NCBI GenBank assembly: GCA_045577175.1
Contig: JAZNHT010000023.1
Location: 38,407-102,406 of the forward strand
Length of the DNA: 64,000 nucleotides
Direction: 5' to 3'
Origin: Eubacteriales bacterium
GTDB taxonomy: Bacteria; Bacillota; Clostridia; Oscillospirales; CAG-272
In this document: piece by piece, positions 20,261 to 20,884 of the stretch
How positions within the stretch are numbered: the first letter of the stretch is position 1
How the letters are laid out: each line of letters opens with the position of its first letter
Program-made: the position numbers and the translations under genes
Notes under the pieces: generated by a model
Seen by the model: only the letters and a program-made list of their open reading frames with translations
What the model was told of the DNA's origin: nothing
Databases searched by the model: none

Positions 20261-20884
20261 TTATTCGTCCTTGACGGTGATAAAGTTCTCCGCATACGGG
20301 AGGGAGAGAATCCAATCGCAGAACGTGTGCCACTCGGGGAGCTTATGATTTCGGCGGGCGTAGTACATGCTGATGAGATTCTCATAGTTCATCGTGCACG
20401 TGCGCATCTGATTGTATGAGGACGGCAGAAGCTGGATCATATCATCCCAGAAAGCGCGCTCCTTCGTCTCAATATAGGTAAGGCGACGCTTTTCCAGAAA
20501 AGCGATCGTCTGATCGAGGCAAGTAAGTGCGTCATCCGTCATACGATCGCAGCTGAAATCCTCGCGGGTGAACGGACGGGCGTGGATTTTGTGCATCGTG
20601 CTCGTGGAATTTGCGACCGTACCGACCTTGTACGTATCAAACTCCTTCCACCAGTACAGCGGCGCGGTGATGTCCACGGAAACGAAAATCTGGCGGAGGA
20701 ATTTGCGGTGATCCGACCCGGAGCGTGCGAGCTTCCCGCCGAGGGACAGATCGTTCTCACCGACGATGAAATCTCCGTTTTCATCCTCGAAGCTGTCGCC
20801 CTTATCCCAGCTGTTGAGCGGATTGCGCATACCGCGCAGGGCGTTGTCAAAATTCATTACAGCGGTTCTTTCCAGTAAAATCAT
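20261..20884 (-). CDS. ThyX-fold (Thy1-like) protein lacking the RHR...S catalytic motif; function unknown
   Basis: [43 protein letters not shown] aligns by eye with Thermotoga ThyX [75 protein letters not shown] resembles the ThyX segment vLP...t....mN.r.l.hf..lR....aqwE. RHR is replaced by TYK and SGRY by STMH. GAGGG RBS before ATG 20884. Confidence 0.5.
   Translation of the reverse strand: [207 protein letters not shown]

Follow-up and report, generated by a model that had tools for sequence, protein, structure and literature searches.

The subject of this report is a single gene and the protein family to which it belongs. The gene lies at positions 20261 to 20884, on the minus strand, of a stretch of 64,000 nucleotides (nt) from Eubacteriales bacterium (assembly GCA_045577175.1, contig JAZNHT010000023.1, positions 38,407 to 102,406 of the forward strand), which we call the window and in whose numbering coordinates are given unless another locus is named. 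Its product of 207 amino acids (aa) has the fold of ThyX, the flavin-dependent thymidylate synthase (FDTS), but the motif by which ThyX is recognized has been replaced by another. The best-supported reading, for which the odds appear to us about even, makes the protein an active enzyme of deoxypyrimidine-nucleotide metabolism that derives from ThyX; it is predicted to have kept the half of the site that activates uracil and to have rebuilt the half that clamps the phosphate and the cofactor. The locus comprises the following features:

15751..20214, plus strand: convergent neighbour, a BNR/sialidase-like surface protein of 1,487 aa (Pfam BNR_2, BNR, aBig_2)
20223..20256, both strands: intrinsic terminator with a perfect 15-bp stem and a 4-nt loop (terminator scan and RNA fold)
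20261..20884, minus strand: ThyX-fold coding sequence of the TYK / NS[TC]STMH family, 207 aa, ATG start, intact open reading frame
20891..20895, minus strand: ribosome-binding site GAGGG, 6 nt 5' of the ATG (20884)
20921..20949, minus strand: predicted sigma-70-type promoter with an extended -10 element
21078..21818, plus strand: divergent neighbour, an M23 peptidase (Pfam Peptidase_M23)

The ribosome-binding site and the promoter come from reading the sequence. The predicted promoter consists of TTGTGT (20949-20944), a 17-nt spacer and TGcTATAAT (20929-20921), and would leave a 5' untranslated region of about 30 nt; a consensus promoter scan does not list it, because its -35 element is weak (3/6 matches). 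At the other end of the gene the hairpin starts 4 bases past the stop codon and occupies the space between two convergent stops, that of the giant BNR gene (20214) and that of the ThyX-fold gene (20261). As minus-strand RNA it folds with a dG of -28.9 kcal/mol (z -7.2), and UUUUCUU follows it immediately in the minus-strand transcript. A preliminary description of this DNA had called the gene monocistronic, with its own TGcTATAAT promoter and a bidirectional terminator, and had placed it between an array of giant genes and a peptidase gene; both statements agree with the sequence reading, the terminator scan, the fold and the identity of the two flanking genes. We regard it as a stand-alone gene of the housekeeping type, apparently transcribed constitutively from the predicted promoter. 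The residues of the product that matter below are R20, D45, H59, K80, T84-Y85-K86, S93, S95-T96-M97-H98, P154, R161, N166, E168, R177, H180 and E184, and the 16-letter string quoted from it in the preliminary description is found in it.

An AlphaFold2 model of the protein, computed from 60 diverse homologues, has a predicted local distance difference test score (pLDDT) of 96 and a predicted template modelling score (pTM) of 0.89. When this model was compared with the PDB by Foldseek, all of the best 50 matches were ThyX (best E 4e-8, TM-scores of 0.57-0.72, identities of 13-18%), including the Helicobacter pylori structures 3n3y and 3ah5 (TM 0.70-0.72) and Thermotoga maritima TM0449 (TM ~0.6). 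Among viral models, three uncharacterised members of the family come first and phage ThyX proteins follow. The preliminary description had assigned a ThyX fold by eye and had named a Foldseek search as one way to check it, and the assignment stands on both the model and the search. The 207-aa query matches nothing at E<=10 in Pfam (2025 copy), NCBIfam release 20 or PADLOC-DB, and neither the query nor a 60-sequence profile matches any PDB sequence. It does match PHROG 6721 (E 6.3e-68, 229.7 bits; residues 1-202 aligned with positions 7-215 of the 218 in the profile), which is annotated 'unknown function' and, as a collection drawn from phages only, differs from the chromosomal Clostridia copy in the window. 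A bridge to ThyX is provided by other members of the family, since the Pfam family Thy1 (PF02511) is matched by three of 60. The member P0193, 51% identical to the query and retaining A-T-Y-K...NSCSTMH, scores 29.3 bits over positions 12-179 of the 191 in this hidden Markov model (HMM), above the gathering cut-off of 24.8. P0193 is also the best member against the thyX equivalog TIGR02170, at 15.9 bits against a cut-off of 87.9, and the query itself receives no score. The alignment of the family with the single T. maritima sequence (TmThyX) by hhalign yields a 37-column match at E 0.11, and a phmmer search with TmThyX of 270 collected family proteins a best E of 7e-4, which is marginal in so small a set. 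Homology to ThyX thus rests on the predicted structure together with the Pfam bridge, and we conclude that the family shares both fold and ancestry with ThyX.

The likeness to ThyX/FDTS (EC 2.1.1.148; PF02511, TIGR02170; TM0449, H. pylori ThyX) extends over the whole length of the fold. The two are of similar size (about 220 aa in ThyX, 207 aa in the query), both are found in bacteria and phages, and ThyX residues R28, D41, G52, P69, P151, N163, R174, H178 and E182 have conserved equivalents in the family. The differences are concentrated in the active site. We mapped its residues on TmThyX in three ways, by hhalign against a Thermotogae ThyX profile (an alignment used for mapping and not as evidence of homology), by MAFFT with phage intermediates, and by a 122-sequence L-INS-i alignment; the TM0449 sequence used is supported by its match to TM0449 in the PDB over all 220 residues with 496 bits, the residue identity not being displayed. 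All three alignments place T84-Y85-K86 on R78-H79-R80, T89 on S83, K80 on R74, N166 on N163, E168 on R165, R177 on R174, H180 on H178 and E184 on E182. In the gapless alignments T94, T96 and M97 correspond to S88, R90 and Y91, and in the hhalign alignment these three partners are S95 (invariant), M97 and H98; R147 pairs with Q151 or I150, depending on the alignment. In other words, RHRxxSxxxxSxR of ThyX has become TYKxxTxxxx(T/S)x(T/M), R147 has become Q or I, R165 has become E and Y91 has become M or H. The ThyX motif R-H-R-x(2)-S-x(4)-S-x-R is accordingly absent from the query, and the further arginines that serve deoxyuridine monophosphate (dUMP) and flavin adenine dinucleotide (FAD), namely R74, R147 and R165, are not retained, with K80, Q151 (or I150) and E168 in their places. 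As both the defining motif and the equivalog score fail, the family should not be filed as ThyX.

In the structures of TM0449, R74, R78 and R147 contact the phosphate of dUMP, and R78, H79 and R165 FAD; mutagenesis has identified the arginines of the RHR motif as essential for ThyX. R174 of ThyX activates dUMP through deprotonation of N3, S88, R90 and Y91 aid the transfer of methylene, and the variants S88A, R90A and Y91A suffer large losses of rate (PMC8316439). The equivalents of R174, H178 and E182 in our family, R177, H180 and E184, show little or no variation. The clamp residues R78, H79, R80, R90, R147 and R165, which in ThyX hold the phosphate of dUMP and the pyrophosphate of FAD, have on the other hand been exchanged for a different and equally conserved set, composed of T84-Y85-K86, S93-x-S95-T96-M97-H98, Q151, E168 and the new basic residues K80, K86 and R161. 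The absence of the RHR arginines and of R90, noted in the preliminary description, is borne out by hhalign and by both MAFFT alignments. Its broader statement that the substrate-binding arginines and serine are gone holds for the arginines of the clamp, but not for R177, H180, E184 and N166, which are kept, and S95 may be the counterpart of S88.

This replacement is not a peculiarity of one genome. At least 8,000 homologues remain after clustering at 90% identity and at least 3,865 clusters at 50% (E<=1e-3), and at least 599 relatives were confirmed in GTDB species genomes, the 80 closest of which are almost all labelled as metagenome-assembled genomes (MAGs) of gut Clostridia, Eubacteriales, Oscillospiraceae, Ruminococcus or Lachnospiraceae, with three labelled otherwise. 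None of the top 120 homologues (73-100% identity) bears a functional name, those named being called 'hypothetical protein', and a literature search covering ThyX-like proteins, thyA/thyX in Clostridia and nucleotide-modification domains found no description of the family. Both TYK and NS[TC]STMH are near-invariant and are kept in about 230 of 242 representatives. The near-invariant motifs of the family are RNPxNSW, [13 protein letters not shown], NS[TC]STMH and NHKLxEW, and across the clusters defined at 50% identity some 40 positions with polar or aromatic residues hardly vary. The ratio of nonsynonymous to synonymous substitution rates (dN/dS) against the two closest homologues is 0.056 and 0.038, and in more distant pairs, where synonymous sites are saturated, the amino-acid identity is still 72-75%. 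The family is under strong purifying selection. The conservation of TYK/STMH among homologues, which the preliminary description had proposed to examine, therefore speaks for a functional family rather than decay, and the non-catalytic remnant that it had considered is effectively excluded by the low dN/dS and by the persistence of identity at synonymous saturation. Its term 'orphan' suits a gene that stands alone in the genome, but not a protein with thousands of homologues. We rejected a degraded one-off copy whose homologues retain RHR, as the replacement is common to thousands of them, and a decaying thyX remnant confined to the window genome, for which nothing speaks but the missing motif, is hardly credible, given an intact reading frame with ribosome-binding site, predicted promoter and terminator, the shared motif replacement and a dN/dS of 0.04-0.06.

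In a sister subfamily, to which the identity is about 27%, R-Y-H stands where the query family has T-Y-K, so that the arginine R78 is kept. The subfamily includes gp109 of Fusobacterium phage Fnu1, phiCD211_20073 of Clostridioides difficile phage phiCD211 and chromosomal copies in Lachnospiraceae, and comprises at least 4,991 matches, which are unnamed; some members have precomputed matches to PF02511. The RYH subfamily shares with the query family the signature SxSxMH, Y85, R177, H180, E184 and W185, but its members are shorter (about 190 aa) and lack the N-terminal RNPxNSW...D30 segment. On jumbo-phage contigs (about 195 kb) the RYH gene is preceded by a glutaredoxin gene and immediately followed by nrdD/nrdG.

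The genomic context of the phage copies is the most informative. We clustered and annotated with Pfam the open reading frames (ORFs) within 10 kb of the gene in 80 IMG/VR loci (1.25 Mb). The recurrent neighbours are MazG (25 loci), DUF3310 (19), NrdD (18), NrdG (18), dUTPase (13) and a guanylate-kinase-like kinase (10), and 46 of the 80 loci contain at least one of MazG, NrdD, NrdG, Dut and the kinase. The last of these is a deoxynucleoside monophosphate (dNMP) kinase, and five of its ten genes begin 14-24 nt after the ThyX-like gene. In P0222 the ThyX-like protein is fused to a guanylate-kinase-like domain, and one other member of the family has DUF1599, 'nucleotide modification associated domain 1', as its fusion partner. 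In Clostridium phage phiCTP1 the ThyX-like gene lies between clamp loader and UvsX, in Enterocloster phage PMBT24 the operon consists of the dNMP kinase, two ORFs without assignment and the ThyX-like gene (WDQ45565), and in Fnu1 the gene adjoins a cytosine methyltransferase. Viral loci that were collected by NrdD contain a ThyX-like gene in 68 of 79 cases, which shows linkage, without a baseline, within one group of closely related phages (NrdD 73-100% identical). Ten immediate phage neighbours have no assigned function, Pfam annotation having given nothing for them.

Searches of the 80 IMG/VR loci by tblastn and with a ThyX HMM found ThyA, ThyX and FolA/DHFR in none of them, and these were also absent from the 79 NrdD-anchored loci, giving 0 of 159 viral loci in all. 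The same three were not found in the genome of PMBT24 (complete, 99,962 bp), which encodes NrdD, NrdG, dUTPase and the dNMP kinase, or in bases 1-57,792 of the 59,199 of phiCTP1, which encodes glutaredoxin, NrdD and a dUTPase-like gene. In the route from uridine triphosphate to deoxythymidine triphosphate that starts with a class III reductase, NrdD is followed by dUTPase, thymidylate synthase and a kinase. The phage ThyX-like gene thus stands where the synthase is expected in modules for the supply of deoxynucleoside triphosphates (dNTPs), and in this respect the family resembles ThyX, which is found in such modules as well. A similar order is known from T4, where the dCTPase/dUTPase gp56 is followed by the dCMP hydroxymethylase gp42 or the thymidylate synthase Td and then by the dNMP kinase gp1. 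The T4 type of pathway and our phage loci have in common the nucleoside triphosphate pyrophosphatase, a slot for modification at C5, the dNMP kinase and an adjacent ribonucleotide reductase, but gp42 and Td possess the ThyA fold, which is unrelated to the ThyX fold of the family.

As its substrate the active enzyme that we propose would take the monophosphate of a pyrimidine deoxynucleoside, either dUMP or a near relative. Its place in the pathway would be after the dNTP pyrophosphatase and before the dNMP kinase, at the step otherwise filled by thymidylate synthase or by a dNMP-modifying enzyme, and it would bind the phosphate, and possibly the cofactor, in a manner different from canonical ThyX.

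The reaction could be that of thymidylate synthase itself, from dUMP to deoxythymidine monophosphate (dTMP). The protein would then be a divergent ThyX that binds the phosphate by the relocated residues K80, K86, R161 and K181, and it would supply dTMP in gut Clostridia and in phages that have neither ThyA nor canonical ThyX. We consider this a genuine possibility, if well short of probable. It agrees with the place of the gene in the slot between NrdD, dUTPase or MazG and the dNMP kinase, with the failure to find ThyA, ThyX or DHFR in the 159 viral loci and in the two phages, with the invariance of the R174 equivalent and the R78 arginine retained by the RYH sister subfamily, and with a very high conservation of sequence, which is typical of such enzymes. 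It has to contend with the replacement of all of R78, H79, R80, R90, Y91, R147 and R165, among which are the arginines essential for ThyX, with the cost of alanine at S88, R90 or Y91 (PMC8316439), and with a TIGR02170 score far below the cut-off even for the best member. The preliminary description held a thymidylate synthase to be unlikely. This cannot be maintained as it stands, since the phage copies hold the position of this enzyme in modules from which ThyA and ThyX are missing.

A different product is rather unlikely, though the same neighbours bring it to mind. The protein might make a non-canonical pyrimidine nucleotide (e.g. 5-hydroxymethyl-dUMP or a 5-substituted dCMP) or carry out another dNMP conversion, as the base-modifying step in a pre-replicative sequence of pyrophosphatase, modifying enzyme and dedicated kinase. 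The close linkage to MazG-type pyrophosphatases and dNMP kinases, or fusion with them, is what one finds in phage pathways of base substitution, the DUF1599 fusion points in the same direction, and the remodelled pocket suggests an altered substrate or chemistry. A substrate other than dUMP has a precedent within the ThyX fold in PolB of polyoxin biosynthesis, a homologue of ThyX by which UMP is methylated. PolB retains the ThyX motif, can be recognized as a Thy1 member and belongs to an antibiotic biosynthetic cluster, whereas the phage copies of our family lie in dNTP-supply modules. Against a non-canonical product, the closest relatives of the query (66-94% identity) are single-copy chromosomal genes with housekeeping neighbours in hundreds of species of Clostridia, hosts in which one would not expect a DNA base to be replaced wholesale, and no glycosyltransferase, aminotransferase or other hypermodification gene recurs near the gene in the 80 viral loci.

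Several observations on the phage loci stand beside this argument. The two ORFs that separate the kinase from the ThyX-like gene in PMBT24 (L091, 5819-6992) encode 307 and 85 aa without a Pfam match and might belong to the same pathway. DUF3310 (SaV-like), seen in 19 of the 80 viral loci, often lies about 300 nt upstream of the gene and is occasionally a C-terminal fusion partner (P0193, residues 302-362); AbiV is triggered by SaV, a protein of lactococcal phage (PMC8306868). HNH_3 homing-endonuclease domains are present in five of 50 long members of the family (P0145, P0148, P0156 and others), four of which also have NUMOD4, and several of the members with HNH_3 align with the query in 2-4 stretches apart from one another, so that the ThyX-like gene seems to have received insertions near residue 115. 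Homing endonucleases are often seen in conserved phage genes of DNA metabolism. A jumbo-phage contig of about 193 kb has nrdD directly downstream of its ThyX-like gene in three pieces, with an HNH_3 ORF and a LAGLIDADG_2 ORF between them (L096, 7860-13432), suggesting homing elements of the intron or intein type.

The bacterial copies present a different picture. In every bacterial locus examined the gene is chromosomal, single-copy and outside prophage. The neighbours that recur over 80 related genomes are an M23 peptidase (21), a CDF transporter (20), serC (12) and a serA-like gene (9); in other lineages Hsp33 lies upstream and a cation-efflux gene downstream. A divergent arrangement with the M23 peptidase, as in the window, is thus seen in 21 of the 80, and a functional link between the two genes is not evident. 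In a close relative (L001) the side with the M23 peptidase, GHL10 and two-component genes is syntenic with the window, and on the opposite side there are a miaB-like gene, ylbF, mutS, mutL and tgt; the same locus encodes a large serine recombinase (1310-2767; Resolvase, Recombinase, Zn_ribbon_recom) about 5 kb from the gene, which is not present in the matching part of the window. Neither thyA nor thyX was found in the window or in the 80 related bacterial loci, a sample of about 1 Mb from 80 genomes that is too small to count. A prophage remnant in the window was considered and rejected on the chromosomal neighbours and the synteny kept in related MAGs, and a component of a defence system was rejected for want of a PADLOC match and for its housekeeping neighbourhoods.

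In two distant lineages serC and a gene for a serA-like dehydrogenase lie within about 0.2-4 kb of the ThyX-like gene, in Lachnospiraceae (L092-L095) and in 12 of the 80 GTDB loci (between L009 and L088), and a chromosomal RYH copy in Lachnospiraceae is about 3 kb from serC-serA. This proximity is seen in the TYK as well as in the RYH subfamily and may be due to chance. Serine biosynthesis is a source of one-carbon units, so that the proximity could be a weak hint at one-carbon supply.

The isolation of the bacterial gene from pathway partners, taken with the loss of most of the catalytic or ligand-clamping arginines of ThyX, would suit a protein that binds a nucleotide or flavin without converting it, i.e. 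a sensor, regulator or scaffold with the ThyX fold and a uracil pocket. We hold this to be improbable. Some 40 near-invariant positions and a dN/dS of 0.05 indicate a constraint stronger than is usual for binding proteins, and the kinase fusion and the place in operons among nucleotide enzymes suggest that a substrate is handed over. Less probable still is a modifier of the methyltransferase type that acts on uracil or another base in RNA or DNA. The loss of the arginines for the 5'-phosphate would suit a phosphate held in a diester, and there are nucleic-acid-modifying and repair genes nearby in two cases, a DNA cytosine methyltransferase in Fnu1 and tgt, the miaB-like gene and mutS/mutL in the one bacterial locus. 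However, the protein is acidic, with an isoelectric point (pI) of 5.4 (family median 6.0), and a small-molecule enzyme therefore fits better than a nucleic-acid binder. Furthermore, the members examined have no fused nucleic-acid-binding domain save for helix-turn-helix or homing-endonuclease inserts typical of mobile elements, and the phage neighbours are enzymes of the nucleotide pool.

It must be noted that our preferred explanation, an active deoxypyrimidine-nucleotide enzyme, has a number of points against it. The residues that canonical ThyX needs for the phosphate of dUMP and for FAD are gone, and E168 in the place of R165 disfavours the canonical binding mode. The alignment of the family with the low-diversity Thermotogae ThyX profile (local), although full-length and sensible, is not significant (E 0.18), and for this reason the equivalences of S88 and R90 shift by one position between methods. 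The 68 positive loci in the NrdD-anchored set are not independent observations. There is no matched baseline against which to judge the absence of ThyA and ThyX around the phage genes, and a ribonucleotide reductase without a thymidylate synthase is common among phages. Finally, in bacterial chromosomes the neighbours have no part in nucleotide metabolism (M23 peptidase, cation efflux and, in a minority, serC/serA).

It is tempting to go further and to regard the TYK/STMH and RYH families together as an unrecognised class of ThyX-derived enzymes acting at C5 of pyrimidine nucleotides, either a thymidylate synthase of a third kind, which would provide dTMP to hundreds of uncultured species of gut Clostridia and to their phages, or the first enzyme of a new type of dNMP modification, with a mode of binding the nucleotide phosphate and the cofactor unlike that of every characterised ThyX. 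We offer this as a tentative suggestion, more doubtful than the enzymatic activity as such.

The remaining features of the region concern the flanks of the gene. The convergent 1,487-aa BNR protein, for which there is no functional link to the ThyX-fold gene, is the final paralogue of an array and is 49% identical to the product of the preceding gene over the full length. Five such giant paralogues stand in tandem on the plus strand (119-20214), with 626 aa (perhaps cut at the start of the window), 1,460, 1,474, 1,440 and 1,487 aa; they are secreted BNR/sialidase-like proteins with an aBig_2 domain and a membrane anchor at the C-terminus. The syntenic relative L001 has its miaB-like gene, ylbF, mutS and mutL at the position of the array, which therefore appears to have been inserted or expanded in this lineage. 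Antisense ORFs reaching 862 aa run over the giant genes on the minus strand (e.g. 16858-18528, 19087-19911 and 7575-10163), but their low-complexity, Arg/Gly/Val-rich translations are of the kind given by spurious ORFs of G+C-rich coding sequence, and we do not consider them genes. On the other flank, beyond the M23 peptidase, lie genes for a GHL10 hydrolase, a DUF554 protein and a two-component system.

Thymidylate synthesis, an essential process, is a drug target, and to our knowledge ThyA and ThyX are the only classes of thymidylate synthase. ThyX is defined by the very motif that the present family lacks, and this large and constrained family of ThyX fold is absent from Pfam and NCBIfam. 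It can be regarded as a natural experiment in the rebuilding of the ThyX active site. If its members are true thymidylate synthases, predictions of thymidine auxotrophy and of sensitivity to antifolates and ThyX inhibitors in gut anaerobes would need to be revised; if they make another nucleotide, an unrecognised pathway of DNA precursors would be indicated. In either case, thousands of 'hypothetical proteins' would gain a testable assignment.

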